Source: an uncultured Gemmatimonadaceae bacterium (GTDB lineage Bacteria; Gemmatimonadota; Gemmatimonadetes; Gemmatimonadales; GWC2-71-9). From it: 64,000 nt of DNA. Where the stretch lies: the NCBI GenBank assembly GCA_964465315.1, contig CAYXIK010000010.1:10219-74218 (forward strand), in the 5' to 3' direction. Made by a program: the position numbers and the translations under genes. Below the pieces are notes generated by a model. The model saw nothing but the letters and a program-made list of their open reading frames with translations. It was not told the origin of the DNA and did no database searches. Position 1 is the stretch's first letter. Every line of letters begins with the position of its first letter. Positions 12,706 to 62,463 of this stretch are shown here, piece after piece.

Positions 12706-13063
12706 GGGGGCGACAGGCTTCGACGGGTTTGGCGAGGATATCGCTGCGTGCCCAGGTCGTCAGTCACCTGGTAAAACCACTGGCAAATTCTTAACTGCCA
12801 ATTCAAACCTGGCACTGGCTGCGTAAGCTTCGGCTTCACGCACCTGCGTGAGTGGCAGCCCGCCTGAGGCGGCGCTCACGTATCGCAAAATCGGGCTGGC
12901 GTGATCCGGGGCCCGAACGGGTCGCGTAAGAGCAGGTAAGGGCTCGTTGCCGCCGGGGCCGGCGAGGCGCCCTGGTGGTGAGACCTCCAAGAAGCCTCGT
13001 CTACGCACGTAGTAGCGGCATCGGAGTCATTCTCGGACCGGGGTTCAATTCCCCGCGCCTCCA
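12706..13063 (+). ncRNA. ssrA: tmRNA (transfer-messenger RNA)
   Basis: The 5' GGGGGCGACAGGCTTCGACGGG pairs with the 3' CGCCTCC-A to form an acceptor stem with a G3:U pair. A T-arm GGGGTTCAATTCCCC is present. The internal tag frame ggc aaa ttc tta act gcc aat tca aac ctg gca ctg gct gcg TAA (12782-12826) ends in ...ANSNLALAA. The terminal CCA is not fully encoded. Confidence 0.92.
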
Positions 13064-13070
13064 CTGAGAC

Positions 13071-45440: not shown

Positions 45441-45444
<4 letters not shown>

Positions 45445-46397
45445 GTGACGAAGTCACGCACCGGCTTTCGACCGAAGGCGTGGATCCGCTCATGCTCGCA
45501 GGCGTGAACGACGGCAACCTCGTCGAGCTGGCCAAGCGGCTGGGCGTGCGCGTCTCGCTTCGGGGAGATGCCCTGATGTTGCAGGGCCCACTCGCGGCGG
45601 TCGAGCGCGCCACGCCCCTGGCGCAGGCGCTCGTCGACCTGGCACGCATGGGTGAGACGTTGGACGTGGGCGACGTGGAGCGCGTCGTGAGCGACGAAGC
45701 GCACCGGCCATCCGGCGAGACCACTGACGGGGACATCCGGATCATCCTCCCGGGTCTGCGACGGGTGATCCAGGCGAAGACCGCGGGGCAGCGGGACTAC
45801 CTCCAGGCGATTGCGCGCCACGACATCGTGATCGGCATCGGTCCCGCGGGCACGGGCAAGACCTATCTCGCGGTGGCTGCGGCGGTGGACGCGCTGTCGC
45901 GCAAGCGTGTACGGCGCATCGTCCTCGCCCGACCCGCGGTCGAAGCGGGGGAGAGCCTCGGCTTCCTGCCCGGCGACCTCCACGAGAAGGTCGATCCCTA
46001 CCTGCGCCCCTTGTACGACGCGCTCGAGGACATGATGCCGCGCGATCGAGTGCAGAAGGCCATCGATAGCCGCACGATCGAGATCGCACCGCTCGCCTAC
46101 ATGCGCGGCCGAACGTTGTCCGACGCCTTCGTCATTCTCGACGAAGCGCAGAACGCGACGGGCATGCAGATGAAGATGTTTCTCACGCGCCTCGGTGTGA
46201 ATTCACGGGCCGTGATCACCGGGGACAAAACGCAGATCGACCTCGCGAACCGGGAGGATTCGGGACTCCTCCAGGTGGAGCGCATCCTCCCCGGCATCGA
46301 GGGCATCGCGTTCTGTTACCTCGGCGATACGGACGTCGTCCGGCACCGGCTGGTCCGGGACATCATCCGGGCGTACGCCGAGGACGTGCAGGGCTGA
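45441..46397 (+). CDS. phoH: PhoH-family ATPase
   Basis: 318 aa, ATGA overlap. Walker A GPAGTGKTYLAV, then LDEAQN. Confidence 0.92.
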
Positions 46398-46398
46398 C

Positions 46399-48573
46399 AT
46401 GAGACTGCCGACGACGCAGCAGCTCGGCTATCACGGCAGCCGCTGGGCGTGGGTGCCGGGGCTGGCGCTCCTGGCCTACTTGGTGTTCCCCTCCAGTGCG
46501 ACCAACGTGGCGCCGCTCGCGGTCGGCACGCTGGCGGATCGCGACGTGATCGCCCCGTTCACGTTCCCGGTCAACAAGACGGATCAGGACCTCGCCCGCG
46601 AGGCCGAAGAGCTCGCCGCCACCGTCAAGCCGATCTATCAGTACCAGGAACGGTCTCTCGACAGCACGAGGACCGCGATGCAGGCGTTCTTCTCGAGCAT
46701 CGAAACGGCCGCCGATCGGAACGGCGCCGTCGCGATCCTGCAGGTCGCCAAGGGCCAGGGATTCGCGCTCGGCGCCCCGGAGGCCGCGTACCTCAACAAG
46801 GGCGGGAAGCGGCACGGTCTCGAGAAGGCCCTGACCGAGCTGTTCGACCGGACGCTCGTGCTCGGCGTGACCGGTCCGGGGGTGCTGCAGGTCGAGCAGG
46901 CCCCCGAGCTCATCGTGCGCCGTCGCTCGGGCGAGCAATCGGTGGCGCGCGAACAGGTGTTGTCGTTCGCCCAGTACCTCGCGCGCGCGCGCGCCATCCA
47001 TCCCGACAAGGGCTCGAGTGTCGGCGACCAGCTGTACGTACGGCTCGCGGGGCATTTCTTCAGACCCACCCTGGTACCTAACACCCTCGAGACCGAGCGC
47101 CGGCGTGACGAGCTGCGCCGCAGCGTAGACCCCAGCAAATACATCGTGCGCGCCGGTGACCGGATCGTTGGCGCTCGCGAGGTGGTGACGACCGAGGCGC
47201 ACGAGAAGCTGCAGGCGCTGCACACCGACCTGGTGCGCCGCGGCGCAGCGACCAGCCGGTCCGTGGGCGGCCTGTTCGGCCCGGTGCTGCGCGACTCGCT
47301 GATCCTCGGCATCTTTTGGGTGCTGATGATGTTCTACCGGCGCGAGACGTATCACGAGCGCCGGCAGGTCGCGCTCATCGGCGGTTTGTTCGGGCTCGTG
47401 CTCCTCGAAGCCGCGGCCATCGCGCACTTCGCGCCGACCCATCCCGAGGTGATCATCCTTCCGTTCATGGCCATGATGCTCAGCGTGCTCTTCAACGGGC
47501 GCGTGTCGATGATCGCCGCCATGATCGTGTCGATCGTCACCGGGCTACAGCCTGTGTTCCACGACATCCCCGCGCTCTTCTTGTGCGTGGTCGGCGGCGT
47601 GACCGCGGCGCTCTCGGTGCGGACCCTGCGGAGCCGGAGCAACTTCTATGTCCCGGTGCTGATCATCGTGCTCGGCTATCTCGCGGGCGCCCTGGCCCTG
47701 GGGCTCGCGGGCAGCTGGACGCTTGGGGAGATCGGCCTGCGTGGCGTGTGGGGCGCGGCGAACGGACTGGTCTCAGCGGGGCTCACGTTCTTCCTGTTGC
47801 CGGTCGCGGAGTCAGTCACGGGCATCACGACAGACCTCACCTTGCTCGAGCTGTCAGACCCGAGCCGGCCCCTCCTGCGGCGTCTGTCGCTCGAGGCGCC
47901 CGGCACGTACGCGCACTCGGTGGCTATGGCCAACCTCGTGGAGGCGGCGTGCAACCGGGTCGGGGCCGACGGCCTGCTCGGTCGCGTCGGCTGCTATTAC
48001 CACGACATCGGGAAGATCAAGAACCCGCAGTACTTCGTGGAGAATCAGACACGCGGGAACAACCCGCACGATCGCCTCAAGGCCTTCCAATCCGCGCAGA
48101 TCATCAAGGCGCACGTGACGGACGGGCTCGCGCTGGCGCGCGAAGCTGGGCTGCCCGACGCGGTCGCTGCGTTCATTCCCGAGCATCACGGGACGATGGA
48201 GATCACGTACTTCCTCGACCGGGCCAAGAAGAGCGGGGACGGCGGCTCGGCGCAGCCGGGGGACTACACGTATCCCGGCCCCAAGCCCCATTCCGCAGAA
48301 ACAGCCATCACCATGCTCGCCGATTCGGTCGAGGCCGCCCTGCGCGTGCTCGAGGACCTGACCCCGAAGAAGATCGAAGAGGTGATCAATCATATCGTCC
48401 GCACCAAGCTGAACGCGGGCCAGCTGGATGAAGCGCCGATGACGCTGCGCCAGATCGATCAGGTCAAGCAGGAGTTCGTCCGCATCATCAGCGGGATGTA
48501 TCACAACCGCATCGACTATCCGGAGTCCAGTGGCGGCATCACGGCGACGTGGCAGCCAGCGGCCAAGGCATGA
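46399..48573 (+). CDS. 7TM-receptor HD-domain phosphohydrolase (PgpH/YqfF family)
   Basis: 724 aa. An extracytoplasmic N-domain, a 7-TM block, and an HD domain (HSVAMANL...CYYHDIGK...IPEHHGT). Confidence 0.88.
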   Translation: MRLPTTQQLGYHGSRWAWVPGLALLAYLVFPSSATNVAPLAVGTLADRDVIAPFTFPVNKTDQDLAREAEELAATVKPIYQYQERSLDSTRTAMQAFFSSIETAADRNGAVAILQVAKGQGFALGAPEAAYLNKGGKRHGLEKALTELFDRTLVLGVTGPGVLQVEQAPELIVRRRSGEQSVAREQVLSFAQYLARARAIHPDKGSSVGDQLYVRLAGHFFRPTLVPNTLETERRRDELRRSVDPSKYIVRAGDRIVGAREVVTTEAHEKLQALHTDLVRRGAATSRSVGGLFGPVLRDSLILGIFWVLMMFYRRETYHERRQVALIGGLFGLVLLEAAAIAHFAPTHPEVIILPFMAMMLSVLFNGRVSMIAAMIVSIVTGLQPVFHDIPALFLCVVGGVTAALSVRTLRSRSNFYVPVLIIVLGYLAGALALGLAGSWTLGEIGLRGVWGAANGLVSAGLTFFLLPVAESVTGITTDLTLLELSDPSRPLLRRLSLEAPGTYAHSVAMANLVEAACNRVGADGLLGRVGCYYHDIGKIKNPQYFVENQTRGNNPHDRLKAFQSAQIIKAHVTDGLALAREAGLPDAVAAFIPEHHGTMEITYFLDRAKKSGDGGSAQPGDYTYPGPKPHSAETAITMLADSVEAALRVLEDLTPKKIEEVINHIVRTKLNAGQLDEAPMTLRQIDQVKQEFVRIISGMYHNRIDYPESSGGITATWQPAAKA

Positions 48574-48985
48574 GCCGGCCGCCCGGCTTCGACGCGCGGC
48601 GGACCAGGTCCTCGCGTGGGAGGGCGCGTTCGGCGCGCGAGTCGAGCTGACCTTGCTCGATCCGGCGGCCATGCGGCGCCTCAATCGCCGCACGCTGGGC
48701 CGGCGCGGCCTGACTGACGTCATCGCCTTCGCATTGCCGCAGCCGGACGGAACGCTGCTTGGGGACGTCTACATCTGCCCGGAAGCGGCAAGCAGCTGGG
48801 TCAACGGCCGGGGAAGGGGGAAGGGGGAAGGCGAGAGGGTGAACGAGGAGCTGCTTCGGCTGGCGGTGCACGGCACGCTCCACGTGCTCGGCTACGACCA
48901 CCCGGAGGGATCAGGGCGGACCCGATCGGCGATGTGGCGCCGACAAGAGCGCTACGTGCACCGCCTGATCCGGACAACGACGTGA
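48530..48985 (+). CDS. ybeY: rRNA maturation endoribonuclease YbeY
   Basis: 151 aa with a GTG start. TDVIAFAL...GDVYIC...HGTLHVLGYDH zinc motif. Confidence 0.88.
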   Translation: MAASRRRGSQRPRHEPAARLRRAADQVLAWEGAFGARVELTLLDPAAMRRLNRRTLGRRGLTDVIAFALPQPDGTLLGDVYICPEAASSWVNGRGRGKGEGERVNEELLRLAVHGTLHVLGYDHPEGSGRTRSAMWRRQERYVHRLIRTTT

Positions 48986-50160
48986 CCCTCACGGCGGCGG
49001 CCCTGACGCTCGGCGGCGCCCTCGTCGCGGGCGTGGCCGCCCTCTGGGCGGGTCTCCTCGCCCTCGGCGAGGAGGCGGCCGTCGGCGAGGCGCTGCATAC
49101 CCTAGGCGATGCCCCCACAACCGTGGGTGGCCGTGTGCCCCTCCATCGCGGTCTGTACGTCGCGCGCCTCGCGCTGCTCGTCCTCGGGGCGGTGGCCGCC
49201 GGGGATGCCCTGGATTGGTGGCGTCGGCCCTGGGCCGAGGCCCTCGGCGCATGGGCGGTGGCGGTTGGGTTCCTCTTCGTGGTTGGCGACGCGCTCCCGC
49301 GGAGTTTGGCGCGGGTTGCGCCGGAGGTCGCGGCGCTAGCCTTGCCGCTGGCCCGTCGCACGCTCGCGCCGTTTGGGCCGCTCCTCTGGCTCCTGGGCTG
49401 GGTGGACCGCGGGCTGCACGGCCTCGTCTCCACGCCGCGCCCGCTCGCGCCGGATCTGGGCGTGGCGCAGCGTGACATGCTCCTCGGCGTGTTCACACTC
49501 GCCGACACCCGGACGGACGAGGTCATGACCCCGCGCCTGGACATGACTGCGGTGGACGTGGCGGCGCCGGTCGAGGACGTCGTCGAGGCGTTCCGCCAGA
49601 GCGAGCACACGCGCCTGCCCGTCTACGACGGAACACCCGATAACATCGTGGGGATCGTATTCGCGAAGGACCTGGTGCCCCTCGTGATGGGCTTGACGGA
49701 CGCGGGCGCGCGCTGGCAGGCCGTGGTCCGGCCCGCCTCGTACGTGCCGGAAGGTAAGACCCTCGACAGCCAGCTCCGCGACTTCCAGCGCGGGCCTGCG
49801 CATCTGGCGATCGTCGTCGACGAATTCGGCGGCACAGCCGGCCTCGTGACGCTCGAGGACATCCTCGAGGAGATCGTGGGCGAGATCCGCGATGAGCATG
49901 ACGTGGGGGAAACCCCGTCGATCCGGCAGGACGGCGATCGGTACTGGGTGGACGGGCGGGTGACGCTCGACGATCTCTCGCACGCGCTGGGGCGGAGCTT
50001 TGAGCACCCGGAGGTCTCGACCGTGGGCGGGCTCGTGTATTCGGTGTTAGGTCGGGTGCCGCGTGCCGGCGACGAGCTCACGCTCGATGGGTACCGAGTA
50101 GTAGTGGAGCGCGTGGACCAGCGCCGGGTGACGCGCGTGGTGGTCCAGAGGCAGTCATGA
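48982..50160 (+). CDS. Hemolysin-family (CNNM/CorC) protein: DUF21 TM domain + CBS pair + CorC_HlyC
   Basis: Track ORF 48934..50160. GTG 48982 gives a GTGA overlap with the ybeY stop. EVMTPRLDM...VVDEFGGTAGLVTLEDILEEIVGEI... Confidence 0.85.
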   Translation: MTLTAAALTLGGALVAGVAALWAGLLALGEEAAVGEALHTLGDAPTTVGGRVPLHRGLYVARLALLVLGAVAAGDALDWWRRPWAEALGAWAVAVGFLFVVGDALPRSLARVAPEVAALALPLARRTLAPFGPLLWLLGWVDRGLHGLVSTPRPLAPDLGVAQRDMLLGVFTLADTRTDEVMTPRLDMTAVDVAAPVEDVVEAFRQSEHTRLPVYDGTPDNIVGIVFAKDLVPLVMGLTDAGARWQAVVRPASYVPEGKTLDSQLRDFQRGPAHLAIVVDEFGGTAGLVTLEDILEEIVGEIRDEHDVGETPSIRQDGDRYWVDGRVTLDDLSHALGRSFEHPEVSTVGGLVYSVLGRVPRAGDELTLDGYRVVVERVDQRRVTRVVVQRQS

Positions 50161-51356
50161 TGCTTCCCCTGGTGCTGCTCGTGAGCGCCCTGGCGCTCGC
50201 GGTGGCGTCCGCGGCGATCGGCGTGGCGGCCGCCGCCGTGAGCCAGGTCGAGCTGACGCGTTGGGTGTCATACAAGCTCCGGGGCTCGGGCGGGGTTGCC
50301 GGTGTGCTCGAGAACCCCGGCCGGGTCCTTGCCACGGCGAACGCGCTCACGACGATCGGCACGCTCTGCGCCGCCGCCGTGATCCCCGCGCTTCTCGCTC
50401 GCACGACGCCAACCGTGCTCGGGATCTTCACCGTCGCGCTCGGGGTGCCCTTGCTCCTGAGCGCGGCGTATCTGGTACCGCGGGTGGTCGGACGGAGGTG
50501 GGCCGAGCCGATCGTCGCCCACGCGGCCCCACGTCTGGAGTGGCTCGGCAAGCTGTTCGCGCCTTTCGTGCCGTGGCGCGACCCGTCGCGCCGCACGACG
50601 CTTGCGGCGGTGTTGACGAGCGCCGACACCGAAGCCCTCGCGTCCGCCGACGAGATGGCCGTGGTGTCGGGCGTGCTGGCGTTCGCGGACCGGCCCGTGC
50701 GGGAGCTGATGACGCCGCGCACGTCCATCGTCGCGATCCCCGAGGGGTTGCTCGCCGCGGAGGCCGCGCACGTGGCCCTCCAGTCCGGCTACAGCCGGTA
50801 CCCCGTATATCGTGGGTCGCTCGACGAAGTCGTCGGCGTCGCCCACGCGTTCGACCTGTTGCGCCTCCCGCCGGACGCGCCCATCCCCGTGCACCCGGCG
50901 CTTGTCGTCCCCGGTACGACACGAGCCGCCGACCTGATGCTCGACATGCAACGCGGCCGGAGTCACCTGGCGGTCGTGCTCGACGAATTCGGCGGCACGG
51001 CCGGCCTCGTGACGTTCGAGGATCTGCTGCGAGACCTGGTGTCCGAGATCTTCGAGCCAGCCGAGCCGTCACCGGGGGTGGAGGCACCGGCCCGTATCGT
51101 CGAGCTCGAGGGCAGCGCCCCGGCCACACGTCTCGAAGAGACCCTCGGCATCACGCTCAAAGCCCCCGGGGTCCAGACCGTGGGCGGCTTGCTCGTCCAC
51201 ACGTTGGGCCGGATTCCCCGGCCCGGCGAGCGGTTCGCCGTGCACGGGCTGGAGTTTGATATCCTGGCCGCAACGGCGACGCGGGTGGAGCGCATCGCGG
51301 TCCGGCCCGGACCGGTGCGCACGGTACCCCTGGAGCGCGTCGAGGAACGGACGTGA
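50157..51356 (+). CDS. Hemolysin-family (CNNM/CorC) protein, tandem paralog
   Basis: 399 aa, ATGA overlap. ELMTPRTSI...VLDEFGGTAGLVTFEDLLRDLVSEI... Confidence 0.85.
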   Translation: MMLPLVLLVSALALAVASAAIGVAAAAVSQVELTRWVSYKLRGSGGVAGVLENPGRVLATANALTTIGTLCAAAVIPALLARTTPTVLGIFTVALGVPLLLSAAYLVPRVVGRRWAEPIVAHAAPRLEWLGKLFAPFVPWRDPSRRTTLAAVLTSADTEALASADEMAVVSGVLAFADRPVRELMTPRTSIVAIPEGLLAAEAAHVALQSGYSRYPVYRGSLDEVVGVAHAFDLLRLPPDAPIPVHPALVVPGTTRAADLMLDMQRGRSHLAVVLDEFGGTAGLVTFEDLLRDLVSEIFEPAEPSPGVEAPARIVELEGSAPATRLEETLGITLKAPGVQTVGGLLVHTLGRIPRPGERFAVHGLEFDILAATATRVERIAVRPGPVRTVPLERVEERT

Positions 51357-51384
51357 GACTCCACTTATTGCATGGTTACTTTGC

Positions 51385-52449
51385 ATGAGCGTGGAGCGCA
51401 TCCTCGAAGGGCTCACCCGACGCGAGCCTGCCGCATTGGCGCGGGCCATCACCCTCGTCGAGAACCAGCGAGACGGGTTCGAGCGCGTGCTGTCGCACGC
51501 CCACGGGCTGCTCGGCCGGAGTGGCGCGAGGCGCGTCGGCATCACCGGGCCACCCGGCGCAGGTAAGAGCACGCTCACCGAAGCGCTCATTCAGCGGTTT
51601 CGGGCACAGTCGCTCTCCGTCGGCGTCGTGGCGGTCGATCCCACGAGCCCGTTTACCGGTGGCGCCCTGCTCGGCGATCGGATTCGCATGGAGTCCGGGA
51701 GCCTCGACCCGCAGGTGTTCATCCGGTCGATGGCCACCCGGGGCGCGCACGGGGGGCTCGCTACCACGACCGAAGAGGTCACTGACCTCTTGGAGGCGTT
51801 CGGCTTCCAGCGGATCATCGTGGAGACGGTAGGAGTGGGGCAGACAGAGCTCGACATCGCCCGCACCGCGGAGACGACGGTGCTCGTCCTCGTCCCGGAA
51901 TCGGGCGACGGCATCCAGACCCTCAAGGCCGGCGTGATGGAAATCGCCGATCTGTACGTGGTGAACAAGAGCGATCGCGCCGGCGCGGACAAGTTGCGCC
52001 AGGAAGTCGAGGTCATGCTTGGGATCCGGCGGGGGAACGCGTTCCGACACGTCGCTCCCCACCACCGAGCGGACAGTCGGACGGTCGGACAATCGGACCG
52101 TGGGCGTCATCCGTCACGTCCGACGGTCCGACAGTCCGACGACTGGGAGCCTCCTGTACTCGCGACGGTCGCATCGACCGGCGCCGGGGTGGATGAGCTG
52201 GCGGCCGCCCTGGATCGCCACCACGTCTATCTTCAGGCGAGCGGGCAGCTCGCGGAGCGGCGCCGACGCCGGCTCGCGGCCCGGACCAGGGCCGTGCTAG
52301 AACGTGGGGTGCAGCGCTGGCTCGTGGAAGCGACCCGCGCCGAGGAATTGTTGCAGCAGCGGCTGGACGAAGTGGCCGACGGGCGCCGCAGCCCGTACGA
52401 CGTCGCGGCGGAGATCCTCGATCAGGTGAAAGCGGGGGTGGCGAGATGA
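51385..52449 (+). CDS. meaB: Methylmalonyl-CoA mutase-associated G-protein chaperone MeaB/ArgK, with an internal repeat-encoded insertion
   Basis: Track ORF 51256..52449, trimmed to ATG 51385 ([10 protein letters not shown]). P-loop [10 protein letters not shown], then VETVGVGQ and VNKSDR. Confidence 0.9.
52071..52143 (+). repeat. Octamer-periodic / 24-nt direct repeat block inside meaB
   Basis: The sequence is ggacagtc ggacggtc ggacaatc ggaccgtg, a spacer, then gtccgacg gtccgaca gtccgacg. It contains two in-frame 24-nt units (52078-52101 and 52120-52143) encoding xTVxxSDx. Confidence 0.7.
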
Positions 52450-54011
52450 GCGGAGGCGAGCGGAAGGCCGTCTACACGCCGGACGACCTGGCCGGCTTTG
52501 ACGCGCACCGCGCGTTGGGCCGAGCGGGCGATTACCCGTTCACTCGCGGCATCCACCCGACCATGTACCGGGGCAGACTCTGGACCATGCGCCAGTTCGC
52601 GGGCTTCGGCAGCGCCGAAGACACGAACCGGCGGTACAAGTTTCTCCTCGAGCATGGGCAGACCGGTCTGTCGGTGGCGTTCGACTTCCCCACGTTGATG
52701 GGCTACGACTCGGATCATCCGCGCGCGGAAGGTGAGGTCGGGAGGTGCGGCGTGGCCATCTCCTCGCTCGCCGACATGGAGGACCTGTTCCGCGGGATCC
52801 CGCTCGATCGGGTCTCGACGTCCATGACCATCAACGGCCCGGCGGCGATGCTGTTCTGCTTCTACGTCGCCGCCGCCGAGAAGCAGGGCGTCTCGTCCGA
52901 CAAGCTGCGCGGCACCGTGCAGAACGACATTCTCAAGGAGTACATGGCCCAGCACGCCTGGGTGTATCCGGTAGAGCCTGCGCTCAAGATCATCGTGGAC
53001 ATGTTCGAGTGGTGCGCGGAGCACGCCCCATTGTGGAACACGATCTCGATCTCGGGCTACCACATCCGCGAGGCCGGGGCGACCGCCGCGCAGGAGCTCG
53101 CGTTCACGCTGGCGAATGGGTTCACCTACGTTGAGCGGGGGCTCGTGCGTGGACTGGACGTGGACGACTTCGCGCCCCGCCTGTCATTCTTCTGGGACAT
53201 TCACAACGACTTTTTCGAAGAGATCGCGAAGCTGCGCGCGGCCCGCCGGATCTGGGCGCGTCACGTAAAGGAGCGCTACCACGCAACGAATCCGCGCTCC
53301 TGCATGATGCGTTTCCACTCGCAGACGGCGGGGGTCACGCTCACGGCGCAGCAGCCCATGAACAACGTCGTGCGAGTCGCGTATCAGGCTCTCGCGGCGG
53401 TGCTCGGGGGCACACAGTCGCTCCACACCAATTCGCTCGACGAGACGCTGGCGCTCCCCACGGAGGAAGCCGTGCGGCTCGCCCTCCGTACGCAGCAGAT
53501 CATCGCGCACGAGACCGGCGTGGCTGACGTCATCGACCCGTTGGGCGGGTCGTACTACGTCGAGTCGCTGACCGACCAGCTCGAGCGTGAGGCGGAAGCC
53601 CTGTTCGCCGAAATCCAGTCCGTGGGTGGCGTGGTCCGGGGCATCGAGAGCGGCTGGTTCCAGCAGCAAATCGCCCGTTCCGCGGAGGCGTTCCAGCGAG
53701 ACGTCGAGGCAGGGGGGCGCGTGCTGGTCGGCGTCAACGATTTCCTGAGCGAGGACGATCATCCCGTCGAGATTCTCAAGGTCTCGGGCGACGCGGAGGA
53801 GAGCCAACGGCGCCGGCTGGCACGCCTGCGCGCCGAGCGCGACGGGGCGCTCGTCGCGGAGCGCCTCGAGGCGCTGCGGCGCGCGGCCCAGGCCGACCGC
53901 AACCTGCTGGGCCCGATGCTGGACTGCGCGCGCGCCTATTGCACGTTGTACGAGATCCGGCACGCGCTCGAGAGTGTCTACGGCGCCTACCGCGAGCCCG
54001 TCTTCTTCTAA
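52446..54011 (+). CDS. Methylmalonyl-CoA (acyl-CoA) mutase, large catalytic subunit (split form, no B12 domain)
   Basis: 521 aa, ATGA overlap with mea[60 protein letters not shown]. Confidence 0.92.
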
Positions 54012-54014
54012 GCC

Positions 54015-55127
54015 ATGACCGCCCTTCCGATTCCGACCCGAGACAACGCCGTGCGCGCGGCCGTCGAGCGGCTGTCGCGCATCGAGGCCGGTGACTATCA
54101 GGTGGTCTCGTGCTACCTGAAACTCGAGCCGCGCGACAAGACGCGCGGCAAGTACCTCATCAAGATGAAGAATCGCGTGCGCGAGGCCGCCACGGCCCTC
54201 GAGCGCCAGGATCTGGAGCGCGCCGTGCGGGACGCGGTGGCCGCGGACCTGGACTGCGTGCTTCGCTACTTCGAGGAGCCGAGCCGGCTCCCGCCGGCCC
54301 GCGGGATCGCCCTGTTTGCCTGCCGAACCCTGGCGTTGTTCGATGTGCTCCCGCTGCCCCACGTGCACCGCTCCCGCCTCGCGGTGGCCCCGGTCCCGCT
54401 GGTGCGGGAACTCGTCGCCCTCGACGAGGAGGTCGGGACCATTCTCATCGTCGCCTGCGACCGCACCGGAGCGCGGTTTTTCGAAGTCACGGCGTACGGC
54501 GTGGTCGAGCTCCCGAGCCTCACCGCCTGGGCCACGCGACCGGGGAAGTTTCACGGCGAGCGCCAGGCGAAACGGGGGAGCGTCCTCGCGGGTGGGTTCG
54601 GGGAGCACAACTATCACATGCGCATTCGCGAAGAGAAGCACCGCCACTATGCGCAGGTGGCCCAACAGATCTTCCACATCCATACGCAGCGCCCCCTCGC
54701 CGGGCTCGCGCTCGCGGGTGTGGGCGTCGACGCCGGCGCCCTGCTGCCACACCTGCATACCTACCTGCACGACCTGGTCCTCGGTGTGGTCCGATTGAAC
54801 CCGAAACGTCTCGCCGCCGCCGAAGTGCGTGAGGCCGCCCTCGCGTTGCGCGAGGAGCGTGAGCGCGCCTGGGAGCGCGCGCACGCCGAAGCGGTACGCG
54901 AGGGTGTGGGCACCGGCTGGGCAGTCAACGGCGTGGAGGGCACGCTCCGAGCGCTCCAGCGAGGCCAGGTCCGGACGCTCTTGGCCGATGGGCAGGACGA
55001 CGACCCGCGCATAGACGACGCCGTTGAGGACGCACTCGCCCAGCGCGTCCAGGTGGACGTCGTGTACGACGAGCGGGCCCGCCGGGTCGTGGACGGACTG
55101 GCGGGCCTGCTGCGGTTCCGCCGCTGA
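54015..55127 (+). CDS. aeRF1/Pelota-superfamily (release-factor-like) protein lacking canonical GGQ
   Basis: 370 aa. [16 protein letters not shown]...[38 protein letters not shown] resembles the eRF1 M-domain. The C-terminal [20 protein letters not shown]...GLAGLLRFR resembles eRF1/Pelota domain 3. Confidence 0.65.
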
Positions 55128-55543
55128 TGCCGATCCCGAAGCGTCCCATCCGGGTGCTGGTGGCGAAGCCCGGCCTGGACGGCCACGACCGTGGCGCCAA
55201 AGTCGTGGCGGCGGCGCTCCGCGACGCCGGAATGGAGGTCATCTACACGGGGCTGCACCAGACACCCGAGATGATCGCCCAGGCCGCGATGCAGGAGGAT
55301 GTTGACGTCGTGGGGCTGTCCATCCTTTCCGGCGCCCACCTGACGCTCTTCCCCCGGGTCAAGCAGCTGCTAGTCGAGGCCGGACGTGACGACGTCCTGG
55401 TGACGGGCGGCGGCATCATTCCTCCGGAGGACATCGACGCGCTGCGCGAGCATGGGATTGGCCGGCTGTTCGGACCCGGCACGCCGACGTCCGAGCTCGT
55501 GAAATACATCGAAGAGTGGGCGGCCGAGCATGTCTCGGCGTAG
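55127..55543 (+). CDS. Acyl-CoA mutase small subunit, cobalamin-binding domain
   Basis: 138 aa. [19 protein letters not shown] (DxHxxG)...[11 protein letters not shown]...GGGIIP. Its ATG overlaps the preceding stop (TGATG). Confidence 0.92.
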
Positions 55544-55552
55544 CGGCAGTCG

Positions 55553-57121
55553 ATGAGCCGTCTCAAAACGCTGACCGACGAGTATCGCGAGCTCCGGGCG
55601 CGCCTCGAGCAGGGAGGCGGACCGGACAAGGTGCGCCGCCAGCACGAGCAGGGGAAACTCACCGCGCGCGAGCGGATCACCGGGCTCTTGGACCGGGACG
55701 CGGAGTGGCTCGAGATCGGGTTGCTCGTGGCGTCGGATCAATACGACGGCCAGGCGCCTGCGGCCGGGGTCGTGACCGGCCTTGGACGCATCGCGGGCCG
55801 TCCGGTCGTGGTGATCGCGAACGACGCGACCGTAAAGGCGGGATCCTGGTGGCCGGAGACCATCAAGAAGATGCTCCGCGCCCAGGAGATCGCCATGCGC
55901 CAGCGGATTCCCATCATCTACCTCGTGGACTCCGCCGGCGTGAACCTCCCGTACCAGGGAGGCGTGTTCCCCGGCCAGTACGGCGCCGCGCGGATCTTCT
56001 ACTACAACTCGATCATGCGCCGCTATCTGAAAGTGCCGCAGATCGCCGCCGTCATGGGCCCGTGCATCGCCGGCGGCGCGTACTTGCCCGCCCTCTCCGA
56101 CGTGATCTTCATGGTCGAGGGCACGTCCTTCATGGGTTTGGGGGGCCCGAATCTCGTCAAGGGGGCGACCGGGCAAGTAGTGGACGCCGAGTCGCTCGGC
56201 GGCGCCGCCACGCACACCACGGTGAGCGCCGTGGCGCACTACCGCGCGAAGGACGACGCGGAGTGCCTCGCACGCATCCGCGAGTACGTCGCTCGGCTGC
56301 CCCGGTCACTGCGGCCGCCCGCGGCGGACGGGAAGCCGAAGCGGAACCCGAAAGAGCTGTATGACCTCCTGCCGTCGGACCATCGCATGAGCTACGACGT
56401 CCGCGCCGTGCTCGAGTGCGTGCTCGATGCCGGGGAGCTCGACGAGTTCCAGCCGGACGTCGCGCCTGAGATGATCTGCGGCCACGGCGCCATCGAAGGC
56501 CGCTCGGTGGCGGTCATCGCCAACTCCCGCGGGGTCATCAAGGGAAGGAAGGGTCAACCGCCCAAGATCGGCGGCATCATCTACACGGAGAGCGCCGAGA
56601 AGGTCGCCTACTTCATCGAGAATGCCGACCGCGAGCGGATCCCGATCCTTTTCGTCCAGGACGTGTCCGGCTTCATGGTCGGCACCGAAGCCGAGCACTC
56701 CGGGATCATCCGGGCCGGGGCGCGCTTCGTCGAAGCGATGGCGACCGCCACCGTTCCCAAGCTGGTGCTCACGGTCAACCACGCCTCGGGGGCGGGCTAC
56801 TACGCGATGGCCGGGCAGGGGTTTGATCCTGATTTCATCGTCTCGTGGCCGACGGGACGCATGGGCGTGATGGAAGGGGAATCGGCCATCCAGGCGGTGT
56901 TCGGCAACGACGCGGCGAAGGCGGAAAACGCCGGCGCGGTGGACGCGATGCGCGCCGATTACGACCATCAGCTCGACGCGCGGTTTGCCGGCGCCCGCGG
57001 CTTCGTGGACGCGATCCTCGTGCCCGAGGAAACCCGCGACATCCTCGCCTTTCTACTCGAGGCGAGCACGGAATTCACCGGCCCCCACGTCGGGGCGTTT
57101 GTCCTCCCGAGCTCTCCATGA
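55553..57121 (+). CDS. Acyl-CoA carboxylase carboxyltransferase beta subunit (MccB/AtuC-like)
   Basis: 522 aa. KLTARERI...VVIANDATVKAGSWWPETIKKMLRAQEIAMRQRIPIIYLVDSAGVNLPYQ resembles the methylcrotonyl/geranyl-CoA carboxylase beta pattern. Confidence 0.88.
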   Translation: MSRLKTLTDEYRELRARLEQGGGPDKVRRQHEQGKLTARERITGLLDRDAEWLEIGLLVASDQYDGQAPAAGVVTGLGRIAGRPVVVIANDATVKAGSWWPETIKKMLRAQEIAMRQRIPIIYLVDSAGVNLPYQGGVFPGQYGAARIFYYNSIMRRYLKVPQIAAVMGPCIAGGAYLPALSDVIFMVEGTSFMGLGGPNLVKGATGQVVDAESLGGAATHTTVSAVAHYRAKDDAECLARIREYVARLPRSLRPPAADGKPKRNPKELYDLLPSDHRMSYDVRAVLECVLDAGELDEFQPDVAPEMICGHGAIEGRSVAVIANSRGVIKGRKGQPPKIGGIIYTESAEKVAYFIENADRERIPILFVQDVSGFMVGTEAEHSGIIRAGARFVEAMATATVPKLVLTVNHASGAGYYAMAGQGFDPDFIVSWPTGRMGVMEGESAIQAVFGNDAAKAENAGAVDAMRADYDHQLDARFAGARGFVDAILVPEETRDILAFLLEASTEFTGPHVGAFVLPSSP

Positions 57122-59961
57122 CGACTCGTCGACTTGTCCTGCTGTCGATCGCGCTCGCGGCGTGTGGTGGTGCGCCGCCCCGGCCAGCGACGGCCCCTAC
57201 GCCTGCCTCAGCGCCGATGGCGGGCGCGCCCCCCGCGCCGGCCGACGCGAGCGCCACGACGGCCGCTCCCGCGGCCCGCGGCAAAGAGCCCGCGCTGCCG
57301 CCCGCGGTGGCACTCATGGCGGGCCTCATGCCCCTCCGCAGTACAGGCGTCGACCAGTTTCAAACGCGCCACCCGGCCTACGATGGTCGTGGGGTGCTGA
57401 TTGCGATTCTCGACACCGGCATCGACCCGGGCGTCAGCGGGCTGATCACGACCAGTACCGGCGCGCCCAAGATCGTCGAGCTGCGCGACTTCTCCGCCGA
57501 GGGCGCGGTCGCGCTCACGCCCGTCGCGCCCGCCGGGGACGGCACCGTGTCGGTCGGCGGACGAAAGCTCGCTGGCGCCGGCCGGATTGGCCGCCTCACG
57601 AGCGCCAGCACCTGGTACGCCGGCTTGCTGCGCGAGCTCCCGCTCGGAAAGACGCCCGCCGCGGACCTGAACGGCGACGGGAACAATACCGACGCCTTCC
57701 CGGTGATCGTCGTGAAGGCAACGGACGGCTGGGTCGCGTTCATCGACTCGAACCTGAACGGCTCGTTCGACGACGAGATGCCGCTGCACGACTACCGCCA
57801 AGGACGCGAGACGATCGCCCTCGGAACACAGCCGATCACGCTCGCGGCCAATTTCGCGGAGGCGAACGGGGTTCCGACGCTCGATTTCTTCTTCGACAAT
57901 GGCGGCCACGGGACTCACGTCGCCGGCATCGCGGCCGGGCACAGCCTCTTCAACCTGGCGGGGTTCGACGGCGTCGCGCCGGGCGCCCAGCTCCTCGGCT
58001 TGAAGATCGCGAACGCGGCCCGGGGCGGCATTTCCGTCAGCGGCAGCATGCAGCGCGCCATGCAGTACGCCTCCCGCTACGCGGAGCAGCGCAATATGCC
58101 GTTGGTGCTGAACCTGAGCTTCGGCGTCGGGAACGAATTCGAGGGCCGGGCCGTCATCGACTCCATCGTGAACGCATTTCTCGTTTCGCACCCCGGAATC
58201 GTGTTCACGATCAGCGCGGGCAACGATGGCCCGGGTCTGTCCACGATGGGATTTCCCGCCTCGGCGGATCTCGCGTTGTCCGTCGGCGCCTCGTACCCCG
58301 GCGCCTTCGCCCGCCCGCCCCAGGCCGGCACGCCGCCGGCCTCGGACGTGATGGGGTGGTGGAGCTCGCGCGGCGGCGAGCTCGCCAAACCGGACATCGT
58401 GGCGCCGGGCGTCGCATTTTCGTCCGTCCCTCGCTGGGATACTGAGAACGAGGTGAAGGGAGGGACGAGCATGGCGGCACCTCACGTCGCGGGTCTCGCG
58501 GCGTGTCTCCTGTCCGCCATGCAGCAGGCGGGCCGCCGCGTGAGTGCGGCCGACGTCGCGCAGGCCCTGCGTGCGTCCGCGGTGCCGTTCACCGGTGAGA
58601 CCGTGATCGATGACGGCGCCGGTCTTCCTCGGCTCGAGGTGGCGTATGACTGGTTGCTCGCCGGCCATCAGGGATCGGCGTACGTGATCCGCGCGCCGGG
58701 CGGCACCTCCGCGGCATTCCGGCGGACCGGCCTGACGGCGCCCGACGATACGCTGCAACTGTTCCGCGTGCACCACGCGGCCGGGCTCCGGGTGGCGCAG
58801 TTCCTGCTCAAGAGCGACGCCCCCTGGCTGTCGGTGCCCCCGAGCGTGCAGGCAGGCGCGCGCGAAACCGAGATCCCGGTGACCTACCAGCCCGCCGCGC
58901 TCACCGCGCCCGGTATGCACGTCGGCGTGGTGAGCGCGCGCAACGCGAGCGACACGCTCGCGGGCCCCGTTTTCCTGCTCGCGAACACCGTCATCGTCCC
59001 GTTGGATCTCAGCGCCAAGCCGTTGTTCGACGAACGACGGGCGATCGGGCCCGCGCGCGTGCAGCGGTATTTCCTGCGAGTGCCGGAGACCGGGGGCGGG
59101 GGGGCAACGCTCGAGACGACCGTCACCCTGCCGGACTCGCTGCAGCAGGGAGCCACGGCGCGGCTGTATGAGCCGGATGGCCAGCCGTTTCGCGACGCGG
59201 AAGAGATCCCGTTGGGTCGCAGCGACCCGGGCACGGCCCGCTTCGTAGTCCGTGCCGAGGACGTAGTCCCGGGTGTCTACGAGCTGGACGTGTTCGCCCC
59301 ACCCCTGGCCAGTGCCACGGCGACCGTCCGTGCAGCCCTCGCGCCTATCACCCTCGCCGAGACCGCCGGGCGGATCGAGGCGTCGGATCTGGGTGTCGAG
59401 TCAGTCACTGGACGCGCGCTGACGCAGCTGATCGGCGCCGGTCGAGTGGTGAGCCTGGCTGGGCGGGGAGCCCCGGCGGAGAGCGTGACGGTCCGCGTGT
59501 CGGAGTGGGCCGCCCGGGTTGTGATCGACGTGACCATGCCCCGCGAGCAGTGGAACGATTTCACGGACTTCGGAGTCACCGACTACGACTCGACGGGCCA
59601 GCAGGTCGGTCAGGGCGCGTTGAACTACGCGGTCGGCCGCCACACCCTCACCGTCCCGCCGGCGCTTCGCGGGCATCCGCTCACCATCGAGCTTTTCCCC
59701 GCATTCGCGCGCGAGGACGGCGCCCATCCGTGGCCTGCGCAAGTGAGTGTGCGCTTCCTCCTCGCCGCCCCCCGTCCTTTGGGCGACGGGACGGACATGA
59801 AGGTCGTGCCGGGGGGGCACGCCGCCGTCCCGCTCGGGAAAGCTCCCGGCGACCTATCTCTCCCGGAGGGCTTCGCGCCGCTCGTCGAGCTGCGCGTACA
59901 AAGCCCCGGCGGCGTCGCGCCCGACGCCGTGCGGCGCGTGATGTTGTCCTCCCCCCGGTGA
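57118..59961 (+). CDS. S8 (subtilisin-family) serine peptidase lipoprotein, TPPII-like spacing of catalytic triad
   Basis: Track ORF 56845..59961, trimmed to ATG 57118 ([22 protein letters not shown] overlap). Catalytic Asp in IAILDTGID, His in [13 protein letters not shown], Ser in [15 protein letters not shown]. Confidence 0.88.
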
Positions 59962-61346
59962 CGCGGCCCCGCGGTCGCGGCCCTATACGGATCGCCGGAG
60001 GGCAGGGGTTCTGGGGCGACTGGCTCGAAGCGCCGTATCGACAGGTGACCGGCGGGCCGGTCGATTACTTGATGATGGACTATCTCGCCGAAGTCACGAT
60101 GTCCATCCTTCAGAAGCAGAAGTCCCGCGATTCGTCGCTCGGGTACGCCAAGGACTTCGTTCCGCTCGTGGAGCGGCTTCTCCCGATCCTCGCCCAACGA
60201 CACATCAAGGTCACGTCGAACGCCGGGGGCGTGAACCCCCGAGCCTGCGCGCAAGCGGTGGCCGAGGTCGCCCGGCGCTTGGGGCTCGGTGGCAAGCTTC
60301 GCATCGGCGTCGTGACCGGCGACGACCTGCTCGCCCGACTGGACGGACTCCTCGCCCGCGGGCATGAGCTCAAGAACCTTGACACCGGCCGGCCGCTGTC
60401 GGACGTGCGGGATCGGGTGCTCTCGGCCAACGCGTACCTGGGCGCGTGGCCGGTGGTCGACGCGCTGCGGCGCGGCGCGGACGTCGTCGTGACGGGCCGC
60501 GTGACGGATACGGGGTTGACGCTCGCGCCGATGATTCACGCGTTCGACTGGCGACCCGACGCGTGGGACCTGCTCGCGGCCGGCACCGTCGCCGGACACA
60601 CGATCGAGTGCGGGGCCCAGTGCAGCGGAGGGAACTGCCTCAAGGATTGGCGCCGAATCCCAGACCTGGCCAACGTGGGGTACCCCATCGTCGAGGCTGC
60701 GGCGGACGGCACCTTCGAGATCACAAAGCACCCCGGCACCGGCGGGCGGGTCGACGTGGCCGGTGTGACCGAGCAGCTCGTCTACGAGATGGGCAAACCC
60801 ACCGAATACATCACGCCGGACTGCATCGCCGACTTCACGACGATTCACCTGACACAAGCGGGGAAGGACCGGGTGCGATTCACGGGGATCAAGGGCCGCC
60901 CGGCGACGGGTAAGCTCAAAGTCTCGGTCGCGTATTTCTACGGGTACAAGGCCGTAGGAACATTGGTGTACGCCTGGCCCGACGCGTATGCAAAGGCCCA
61001 GGCCGCGGACCGCGTCCTCCGCCAGCGCCTCACGGCCCTCGGCCTCAAGTTCGAGGCCGTGTTGACGGAATTCGTCGGTGCGGACGCGACGCACGGCGCG
61101 CTCGCACGCGCGAGCGCCCCGCTCGACGACCTCCCCGAAGTCCAGCTCCGGATCGGCGTGCGCTCCCCAGACAAGGCGCCGGTTGAGCGCTTCACGCGGG
61201 AGATCGCACCCCTCATTCTCAACGGACCGCCGAGCGTGACCGGGTTTGCCGGCGGACGACCGAAGCCGGAGGAGATCGTCGCCTACTGGCCCGCGCTACT
61301 CGACAAGCGTATGGTGGAGCCGTGCGTGGAAATCGTGGACGTATGA
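59958..61346 (+). CDS. AtuA-like (DUF1446, acyclic terpene utilisation) protein
   Basis: Track ORF 59505..61346, trimmed to GTG 59958 (GTGA overlap). [21 protein letters not shown]...[16 protein letters not shown]...[14 protein letters not shown]. Confidence 0.8.
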
Positions 61347-61708
61347 AATCCAAGCGTCGCACGGTCGCACGGTCGGACCGCAAAGCCAAGAGCCGGGTCC
61401 CGCTGCTGGAGCTGGCGCACGCACGCTCCGGCGACAAGGGCGATACCGCGAACATTGGACTCATCGCGCTCAAGCCCGCGTACTACCCCATTCTCGTGAA
61501 ACAGGTGACGGCGGCGCGCGTGGCCCGGCACTTCAAAGGCATGATCAAGGGAGACGTGCAGCGTTACGAGCTCCCGAACCTGCACGCCTTGAATTTCCTG
61601 CTGCACGGCGCGCTGGACGGAGGCGGGACGATTTCCCTGAAGACCGATGCGCAGGGGAAGGTGTTCTCCACCGCGCTGCTCCGCCTCGAGGTCGAGCTCA
61701 AGAAATGA
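61343..61708 (+). CDS. Small AtuA-partner protein (DUF4387-like) with basic N-terminal extension
   Basis: Track ORF 61322..61708; ATG 61343 gives an ATGA overlap. [22 protein letters not shown]...[13 protein letters not shown]. Confidence 0.7.
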
Positions 61709-62463
61709 GCGATCGCGTGCTGGTCGCGCTCGAGAGCGGCGTCCTCACGGCCACCCTCAATCGCCCCGACAAGAAGAATGCCATCGACACACCGATGATC
61801 GACGCGTTGCTCCAGATGCTGGAGCGTGCCGACCTCGATGCCGCGGTCCGAGTGGTCGCCCTGCGCGGCGGGGGCGACGATTTCTGCGCCGGCATGGACC
61901 TCCACGAGCTGCTGGCGTCCGCCGACAAGAGCGTGGAGGAGAATCGCCGGGCGGCGCTGCGTTTCGCCGAGATCTTCGTCCGTATGCGCCAGGTTCCGAA
62001 ACCAATCGTCGCGGTCGTGCGCGGTCGAGCGCTCGCGGGCGGCTGTGGTCTCGCGACGGCGTGCGACATCGTGCTCGCCGCGGAGTCGGCCAAATTCGGC
62101 TACCCGGAGGTGCAGCGCGGCTTCGTGCCCGCGATAGTCATGACCCTCCTCAAGCGCGCCGTCGGCGAGAAGGTCGCGTTCGATCTCGCCGCGACGGGGC
62201 GGATCCTCGAGGCCCCGGAAGCGGCGGGACTGGGACTCGTGTCGCGGGTGTATGAAGAGTCGGACTTCGACGATCAGGTGGGCGAGGTGCTGCGCGCACT
62301 GGCGGCGGCGAGCGCATCGGCACTGGCATTCACCAAACAGCAGTTTTACCAGCTCGACGGCCTGGGCTTCGACGAAGGACTCCGCCTCGGCGCGGACGTG
62401 AACGCCGTGAGCCGGACGACGCCGGACTTCCGCGCGGCGTTGCAGGCGTTTCTCAAGAAATAG
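61705..62463 (+). CDS. Enoyl-CoA hydratase/isomerase (crotonase) family protein
   Basis: Track ORF 61246..62463, trimmed to ATG 61705 (ATGA overlap). LNRPDKKNAI...FCAGMDL...ALAGGCGLATACDIVLAAESAKFGYPEVQRG. Confidence 0.9.
   Translation: MSDRVLVALESGVLTATLNRPDKKNAIDTPMIDALLQMLERADLDAAVRVVALRGGGDDFCAGMDLHELLASADKSVEENRRAALRFAEIFVRMRQVPKPIVAVVRGRALAGGCGLATACDIVLAAESAKFGYPEVQRGFVPAIVMTLLKRAVGEKVAFDLAATGRILEAPEAAGLGLVSRVYEESDFDDQVGEVLRALAAASASALAFTKQQFYQLDGLGFDEGLRLGADVNAVSRTTPDFRAALQAFLKK

Follow-up and report, generated by a model that had tools for sequence, protein, structure and literature searches.

A Balon-like release-factor homologue encoded between the genes for the two subunits of a B12-dependent acyl-CoA mutase in Gemmatimonadota

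Introduction

Balon is a ribosome hibernation factor, reported in 2024, that sits in the ribosomal A site, lacks the NIKS and GGQ motifs and contacts EF-Tu through a hairpin of its C domain (PMC10901736). The beta-hairpin that binds EF-Tu is a C-domain insertion termed highly conserved; Balon, Msmeg1130 and Rv2629 are all non-catalytic, and the published stress-operon contexts include Hsp20 and, most often, RaiA/HPF (PMC10901736). The baeRF-1 clade had been catalogued before Balon, by Burroughs and Aravind in 2019, who described an insert in its Pelota-like domain (PMC6514570). Here we describe a baeRF gene at positions 54015..55127 (+ strand) of a 64,000-nucleotide stretch of an uncultured Gemmatimonadaceae genome (assembly GCA_964465315.1, contig CAYXIK010000010.1, positions 10,219 to 74,218; the whole stretch is referred to as the window). 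The gene is a Balon-like member of baeRF families 10 and 3 and lies between the genes for the large subunit and the B12-binding subunit of an acyl-CoA mutase, an arrangement that was found in Gemmatimonadales loci wherever the flank was long enough to show it.

A preliminary description, made from the letters of the window alone, had assigned the protein to the aeRF1/Pelota superfamily, had read its GGQ motif as replaced by GGF, and had proposed that it might act in assembly or repair of the mutase. It had also stated that no described association of such a protein with a B12 mutase/MeaB operon was known to its author, and this agrees with our reading of the literature: the mutase placement was found neither in the Balon paper (PMC10901736) and its two supplementary files, nor in the baeRF survey (PMC6514570), nor in full-text searches.

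Results

The open reading frame (ORF) begins with ATG and encodes 370 amino acids (aa), which fall into approximate N (residues 1-130), M (131-275) and C (276-370) domains. Pfam placed the protein in PF18854 (baeRF_family10; 31.2 bits, cut-off 27.1) and PF18845 (baeRF_family3; 31.5 bits, cut-off 31.5), scores that are borderline, with the same precomputed assignments in more than 100 homologs; Host_attach and families 12 and 5 gave weaker Pfam matches, and the only NCBIfam matches, both weak, were to the models 'MSMEG_1130 family' and 'Rv2629 family ribosome hibernation factor'. A search of the Protein Data Bank (PDB) with the single sequence returned only a marginal match to the C-terminal part of aRF1, and a family profile was needed to go further. 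This profile, made from 71 members and run against all PDB sequences, ranked Balon Msmeg1130 (8v9j) top over its full length (E=1.2e-28), followed by aRF1 (4af1, 1e-20), Rv2629 (8e-19), a second aRF1 (3agk, 1e-13), Psychrobacter urativorans Balon (8rd8, 3e-12), Pelota (1e-10) and eRF1 (about 3e-9). An AlphaFold2 model built on the family alignment had a mean predicted local distance difference test score (pLDDT) of 86.7 and a predicted template modelling score (pTM) of 0.72, and was weak only at residues 1-8 and in a loop at residues 171-190. Foldseek comparison of this model with the PDB gave ribosome-bound Msmeg1130 as the best match (8v9j_z, E=9e-21; TM 0.58, 8v9j/8v9l), with Rv2629 at 4e-14 and P. 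urativorans Balon at 3e-15; aRF1, eRF1, other Balons and Pelota came after Msmeg1130, and the first 44 matches all belong to the aeRF1 superfamily. Profile, model and structural comparison therefore agree on an N domain, an RNase-H-like M domain and an L7Ae/Pelota-like C domain, all three of which are kept across 80 orthologs, and on homology to Balon in both sequence and structure. The superfamily assignment of the preliminary description was upheld on this evidence, its C-terminal domain included; what it had missed is that the clade has a characterised member, Balon (PMC10901736).

The three-domain fold is common to the window protein and the Balons (Msmeg1130, Rv2629 and P. urativorans; 8v9j, 8v9k, 8rd8), its best profile and Foldseek matches, at 13-19% identity in the Foldseek alignments. 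All of them lack NIKS and a canonical GGQ glutamine and have a long, flexible tip loop. The N-M-C architecture and a basic helix after that loop are likewise common to baeRF-1 families 10 and 3. Pelota/Dom34 is another non-catalytic A-site factor of the aeRF1 superfamily, and its M and C domains match (profile 1e-10, Foldseek about 1e-10), although less strongly than Balon or aRF1; the best of these matches (3j15) covers only about positions 187-390, that is, the M and C domains, and, as a further difference, neither a partner GTPase nor ABCE1 is encoded near the window gene. The fold of aRF1/eRF1 is the same in all three domains (4af1; profile E=1e-20, Foldseek E=5e-18), and the C-terminal G-L-A-G-L-L-R-F-R of the window protein matches GLAGILRFR of aRF1. 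Unlike aRF1/eRF1, the protein has no NIKS and no Gln at the GGQ position, and its loop is about twice as long: the SNIKS of aRF1 4af1 faces a gap or unrelated residues in the alignment, and nothing resembling NIKS was found in residues 1-130. Translation termination in bacteria is carried out by RF1 and RF2, so the window protein cannot be the main termination factor. The JGI/IMG label 'peptide chain release factor subunit 1' or 'eRF1', borne by many homologs (P0002, P0003, P0010 and others), is a misleading automatic annotation, since these are bacterial proteins without GGQ or NIKS.

The N and M domains are basic (isoelectric point of the whole protein 9.06), and two conserved elements of the M domain were delimited by residue counts over the 80 orthologs. 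The first, the tip loop that is the counterpart of the GGQ loop, spans residues 171-197 (54525..54605, + strand; delimited with the help of the model) and is modelled with pLDDT of 55-68 over residues 171-190. Its conserved residues are R175, K178-F179-H180-G181, R183 (74/80), Q184 (73/80), G193 and G196-E197 (80/80). Because the long M-domain helix begins at residue 195 in the model, the triplet that stands at the GGQ place of eRF1 is G193-G194-F195, just before that helix; in the family profile alignment, likewise, the 'G-Q' of aRF1 4af1 is aligned with 'G-W'. Across the orthologs the triplet reads G193-[G/S]194-x195, with Ala (33), Phe (25), Tyr (11), Ser (5) or Leu (3) at position 195 and Gln in none. 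The earlier reading of GGQ changed to GGF thus holds as regards the lost glutamine, but GGF is not a conserved motif, as residue 195 is variable. The second element is the helix after the loop, R203-I-R-E-E-K-H/Q-R-H-Y-A213 (54621..54653, + strand), in which R203, R205, E207, R210 and A213 are each invariant (80/80) and I204 and Y212 are each present in 79/80. It aligns with the helix that follows the GGQ loop of eRF1, and its conserved arginines are a feature for which contact with 23S rRNA has been proposed in baeRF-1 proteins (PMC6514570).

The conservation of R183 and Q184 within a flexible tip loop bears on whether the protein could be an active rescue factor, a peptidyl-tRNA hydrolase or an ArfB- or Vms1-like releasing enzyme that uses Q184 in place of GGQ. 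An ungapped count from the P-x-K anchor does place Q184 at the GGQ glutamine of eRF1/aRF1, and family 10 was singled out among baeRF proteins as keeping a conserved Gln and being possibly active (PMC6514570). Yet the neighbours of Q184 are Glu and Arg, not the glycines that the backbone conformation of GGQ requires, and for this reason a catalytic Q184 is a minority possibility; the structural triplet before the long helix has no Gln, Q184 is fixed only in the mutase-embedded clade, with Q, H, R, G or A at this position in the sister paralogs, and the characterised close relatives Balon, Msmeg1130 and Rv2629 are non-catalytic (PMC10901736). The window also contains a canonical tmRNA (12706-13066, + strand; RF00023, 133 bits), 41 kb from the operon, so that the organism has standard trans-translation as its primary rescue system. 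We therefore regard active rescue as an improbable function for the protein.

The position of the gene was read directly from the sequence. The TAA stop of the mutase large subunit (54009-54011) is followed by GCC and then by the baeRF ATG at 54015 (junction 54009..54017, + strand), a 3-nt gap that is too short for a promoter or a Shine-Dalgarno spacer; at the other end the baeRF TGA (55125-55127) and the ATG of the B12-binding subunit (55127-55129) have one A in common in a TGATG overlap (55125..55129, + strand). The wedge position and both junctions are exactly as first described, and the peptides quoted at that time were all found in the translation. The ORF is a real gene, as shown by its codon-position pattern (G+C of 0.79/0.45/0.87 at positions 1/2/3, in DNA of 68% G+C) and by purifying selection comparable to that on its neighbours: dN/dS was 0.064-0.071 against the three closest orthologs compared, and 0.03-0.07 for the mutase, B12-subunit and carboxyltransferase genes in the same comparisons.

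A scan of one genome per species of the Genome Taxonomy Database (GTDB) returned 138 relatives, the best 80 of which all come from metagenome-assembled genomes (MAGs) of Gemmatimonadales or Gemmatimonadota. Together with locus L001 these 80 give 81 Gemmatimonadales loci, and in every one of these the order MeaB, mutase large subunit, baeRF, B12-binding subunit, carboxyltransferase is found wherever the fetched flank reaches. Identity to the window copies across the 81 loci is 64-93% for baeRF and 82-96% for the mutase. The junctions are also maintained. Between mutase and baeRF there is a gap of 1-5 nt in 62/79 loci and an overlap of 1 or 4 nt in 9/79, and between baeRF and the B12-binding subunit there is a 1-nt stop/start overlap in 53/80, nearly all of them TGATG, and a 4-nt overlap (NTGA) in 25/80 (ATGA in 16, GTGA or TTGA in the others). 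The mutase large subunit and baeRF ORFs are in the same frame in the window, with TAA-GCC between them, so that read-through would fuse the two; a read-through fusion was rejected, as the 3-nt gap is not conserved (45/79 loci, with 1, 2, 4, 5 and -1 nt also occurring), and the in-frame spacing is probably incidental.

Coupled junctions on both sides could also suit a cis-acting device, in which the protein would act on the ribosomes of its own mRNA and tune re-initiation between the mutase cistrons or the stoichiometry of the subunits, and Balon can bind translating ribosomes (PMC10901736). Set against this, nothing at the junctions goes beyond ordinary overlapping stops and starts, no conserved RNA element was seen there, a diffusible protein has no obvious way of acting on its own mRNA only, and the gene is kept in the lineage of L082, where the mutase cistrons are absent (see below). 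We consider such a device highly improbable.

The arrangement extends beyond the 81 loci. Relatives of only 45-50% identity in baeRF keep the sandwich between the mutase subunit genes (P0129 in locus L085, P0126 in L086), as do the metagenome contigs L093, L094, L097, L099, L119 and L130; the mutase in these deeper-branch loci is 72-77% identical to that of the window. A metagenome scan with an 8-sequence alignment also retrieved many loci of the embedded clade. In one deep branch (L138 and L142) the mutase gene lies 8-14 nt upstream of baeRF and a gene for a HAD-family hydrolase stands between baeRF and the B12 gene, starting at the baeRF stop (6131-6829 in L138; likewise in L142). The junction of the mutase subunits therefore tolerates unrelated insertions. 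One lineage, that of P0125 (L082-L084, from three independent samples), keeps two adjacent corC genes, baeRF, the carboxyltransferase, the S8 protease and ech, but has no MeaB, mutase or B12 gene at the locus within about 6 kb either side of baeRF; in place of the mutase block, mgtE, an ABC1 kinase and sulP are found upstream, and the carboxyltransferase remains beside baeRF even there. By identity the closest relatives of the P0125 protein (58%) are mutase-linked, and for this reason secondary loss is the more parsimonious account: the mutase genes were probably lost in this lineage, an argument from parsimony for which bootstrap support from a neighbour-joining (NJ) tree is weak. In that tree the main embedded clade was recovered in 200/200 replicates and the sister clade in 182/200 (91%), with deeper nodes at 42/200 or below; an attempt to prove a single origin of the sandwich by bootstrap failed at these deeper nodes. 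The pattern is best read, on parsimony only, as one old insertion that was inherited vertically and is confined to one phylum. It had been suggested beforehand that homologs might show recurrent linkage to mutase genes, or else that the gene might be a one-off insertion. The survey of neighbourhoods found linkage far beyond a single genome, in the 81 loci and in deeper branches, which disposes of the latter; it is recurrent within one phylum only, and looks like vertical inheritance and not like repeated independent recruitment.

So constant a position could mean that the split B12 mutase has taken on the aeRF1 fold as an accessory subunit, which would bridge or chaperone the large and small subunits or take part with MeaB in cofactor loading or repair, and which translational coupling would hold at a set ratio to both of them. 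The sandwich in all 81 loci where the flank allows and in the deeper branches, the conserved 1-5 nt gap and TGATG/ATGA overlap, and the derived features of the clade described below (lost C-domain insertion, altered tip loop, fixed Arg-Gln) would be in keeping with this. The C domains of aeRF1-family proteins normally dock on a GTPase, and the operon encodes the GTPase MeaB, from which such a partnership might be surmised; MeaB belongs, however, to the SIMIBI-class G3E GTPases, which have no relation to the translational GTPases bound by aeRF1-type proteins. Further points speak against an accessory role: the basic helix of the rRNA-binding type and all three domains are still strongly constrained, the P0125 lineage keeps baeRF without mutase genes at the locus, in L138 and L142 the HAD hydrolase has entered the same wedge, the literature searches gave no precedent, and a residue-level or structural interface with the mutase was not obtained. 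The role in mutase assembly or repair proposed in the preliminary description thus found no backing, no result here tying the protein mechanistically to the mutase, and we hold an accessory role to be unlikely.

A sister clade of baeRF paralogs, some of whose members are named in NCBI as Gemmatimonadales or Gemmatimonadota bacteria, occurs in the contexts known for Balon. In seven loci a gene for HPF (S30AE) joined to a cold-shock domain (CSD) lies 77-103 nt upstream of baeRF, and in several more it lies within about 1-3 kb; Hsp20 is a neighbour in eight loci, and Usp, CBS and HHH_8 proteins are neighbours elsewhere. A still more distant member of the family adjoins an NYN nuclease. The window gene itself has no such stress-operon context, there being no HPF or Hsp20 in the window, and unlike Balon it lies in a B12-mutase/acyl-CoA catabolic operon. 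Among the few named records, compared by locus-tag prefixes and contig names, no genome was found to carry both an embedded and an HPF-linked paralog. The HPF beside the sister paralogs is of unusual architecture, being a fusion of Ribosomal_S30AE with a cold-shock domain (L088, 919-1449; L173, 2047-2610), and the same fusion is found upstream of baeRF in L115, L117 and L123-L127. In L173 it is followed by a CBS protein that stands alone and by an HHH_8 protein; the architecture recalls the archaeal HPF-CBS factor HibA.

Alignment of the embedded clade with its relatives also revealed a change in the C domain. An insertion about 27 aa long (PGFRC..SGRL..C.G.G; a zinc ribbon in some, four-Cys in the most distant) is found in most relatives at a site that in the window protein lies between residues 332 and 333 (55008..55013, + strand), where it is lacking. 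The insert described for baeRF-1 proteins is at this site (PMC6514570). The insertion is absent from 98/107 distinct mutase-linked sequences and present in 47/49 non-mutase sequences, so that, unlike many baeRF-1 families, the main embedded clade has no two-strand/zinc-ribbon insert in its Pelota-like domain. Nine deep-branching mutase-linked sequences keep it, which places the loss later than entry into the operon. From the profile alignment to Msmeg1130 the site would appear to coincide with the EF-Tu-hairpin region of Balon, and on this presumed equivalence the window protein lacks the element with which Balon contacts EF-Tu. The lost insertion, the altered tip loop and the fixed Arg-Gln argue for a functional divergence of the embedded paralog.

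The genes on either side form part of a co-directional array of about 19 kb, from aspS (43654) to ech (62463), in which nearly all junctions overlap or nearly abut. Its order is aspS, phoH, 7TM-HD, ybeY, corC, CNNM/corC, meaB, mutase, baeRF, B12-binding subunit, carboxyltransferase, S8, atuA, atuA-ferredoxin, ech, and is the same in L001. Upstream, Pfam identified phoH, 7TM-HD, ybeY, corC and CNNM/corC at 45441..51356; these are followed by the MeaB-type G-protein chaperone of the mutase (51379..52449; PF03308 E=1e-85; TIGR00750 319.8 bits, cut-off 240.75), whose stop overlaps the start of the 521-aa large, substrate-binding mutase subunit (52446..54011; PF01642 E=1e-222). Downstream of baeRF are the 138-aa B12-binding small subunit with its DxHxxG motif (DGHDRG; 55127..55543; PF02310 E=2e-25; TIGR00640 E=6e-52), an acyl-CoA carboxylase carboxyltransferase subunit (55553..57121; PF01039 E=1e-130) and, again from Pfam, an S8 subtilase, AtuA, AtuA-ferredoxin and enoyl-CoA hydratase (57118..62463), all on the + strand. 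The baeRF gene is thus at the seam of a ribosome-maturation/Mg2+ cluster (phoH-ybeY-corC) and a block for catabolism of branched-chain or terpenoid acyl-CoA. Of the operon genes meaB is conserved least (identity across orthologs 63-92%), and its product, relative to the Pfam and TIGR profiles, carries an inserted segment, roughly 30 residues long, in which Arg, Ser and Pro abound.

The mutase itself was examined at the positions that bind the substrate carboxylate in methylmalonyl-CoA mutase (MCM), Tyr89 and Arg207 in P. shermanii numbering. Where MCM reads RQYAGF and MVRNTY, Phe (RQFAGF) and Gln (MAQHAW) stand in the large subunit, a combination that we take to be the isobutyryl-CoA mutase pattern. 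On these two residues the flanking enzyme is probably not a methylmalonyl-CoA mutase, and the operon probably does not serve the propionate/succinyl-CoA pathway. The closest solved structure of the large subunit is HcmA of 2-hydroxyisobutyryl-CoA mutase (4r3u, E=7e-166), in which Asp117 corresponds to an Ala in the window. A promoter and terminator scan of 45.5-62.5 kb gave nothing above shuffled expectation, and an Rfam search of the whole window detected neither a riboswitch nor any other RNA close to the operon. PADLOC defence models gave no match, and a reading of the locus as a defence system was dropped.

Discussion

On account of its homology and fold, its conserved features of the rRNA-contacting type, the contexts of its paralogs and the persistence of the gene without the mutase in the L082 lineage, we favour, with somewhat better than even confidence, a non-catalytic A-site factor of the Balon type that is transcribed together with the mutase operon and coupled to it in translation. 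The protein would be a release-factor mimic of the baeRF-1 type, without stop-codon recognition, for want of NIKS, and without the canonical catalytic Gln. By homology its most likely action would be to occupy the ribosomal A site and keep ribosomes inactive and protected, its basic N and M domains binding the A site and its tip loop and Arg-rich helix reaching toward the peptidyl-transferase centre. One Gemmatimonadota paralog became fixed inside the long co-directional array from phoH through ech, where it is predicted to be transcribed and translationally coupled with both subunits of the isobutyryl-CoA-mutase-like enzyme. The factor would then be made at every expression of this operon for the catabolism of branched-chain acyl-CoA, plausibly when nutrients are limiting, and would have no direct role in the mutase reaction.

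Several observations weigh against a Balon-type factor. In more than 100 genomes the gene has kept its place, coupled junctions included, between the subunits of a single enzyme, which is unusual if the protein and the enzyme are functionally unrelated. The NCBIfam equivalog cut-offs for Balon-type proteins were missed widely (35 against 480 bits and 26.8 against 320 bits), and the main embedded clade has no C-domain insertion where the EF-Tu hairpin would be expected. The tip loop of the embedded clade is also longer than that of the sister clade (about 23 against 17 residues), and the embedded clade has replaced the Trp that is found at position 195 in most of the sister clade (PGWGE) and has fixed an Arg-Gln that is not conserved there.

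These departures may be taken together as the record of a capture, in which an aeRF1-fold protein was drawn into the mutase operon and took on a task foreign to ordinary Balon paralogs: either as a stoichiometric partner of the mutase/MeaB system, for assembly of the subunits or exchange of the cofactor, or as a dedicated link that idles ribosomes in proportion to the expression of a catabolic pathway used at times of starvation. A change of partner would fit the lost EF-Tu-hairpin insertion, the loop remodelled around Arg-Gln and the wedge position in every mutase-linked branch sampled. We judge a capture of this kind to be an outside chance, and return to the Balon-type factor as the preferred account. 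Neither the protein family nor its likely activity in biochemical terms is new; the placement between the mutase subunits and the loss of the hairpin insertion in this clade appear to be undescribed.

The embedded clade offers a natural experiment on functional differences among the many paralogs of Balon: one paralog, without the insertion at the presumed EF-Tu-hairpin site, has long been locked in a metabolic operon, and its sister paralogs in the same phylum have kept HPF, Hsp20 or Usp contexts. If the embedded factor does not bind ribosomes, this would be the first case of a non-ribosomal role for a protein of the aeRF1 fold; if it does, this would mean that hibernation factors can be wired directly to a catabolic operon and not to a general stress regulon.

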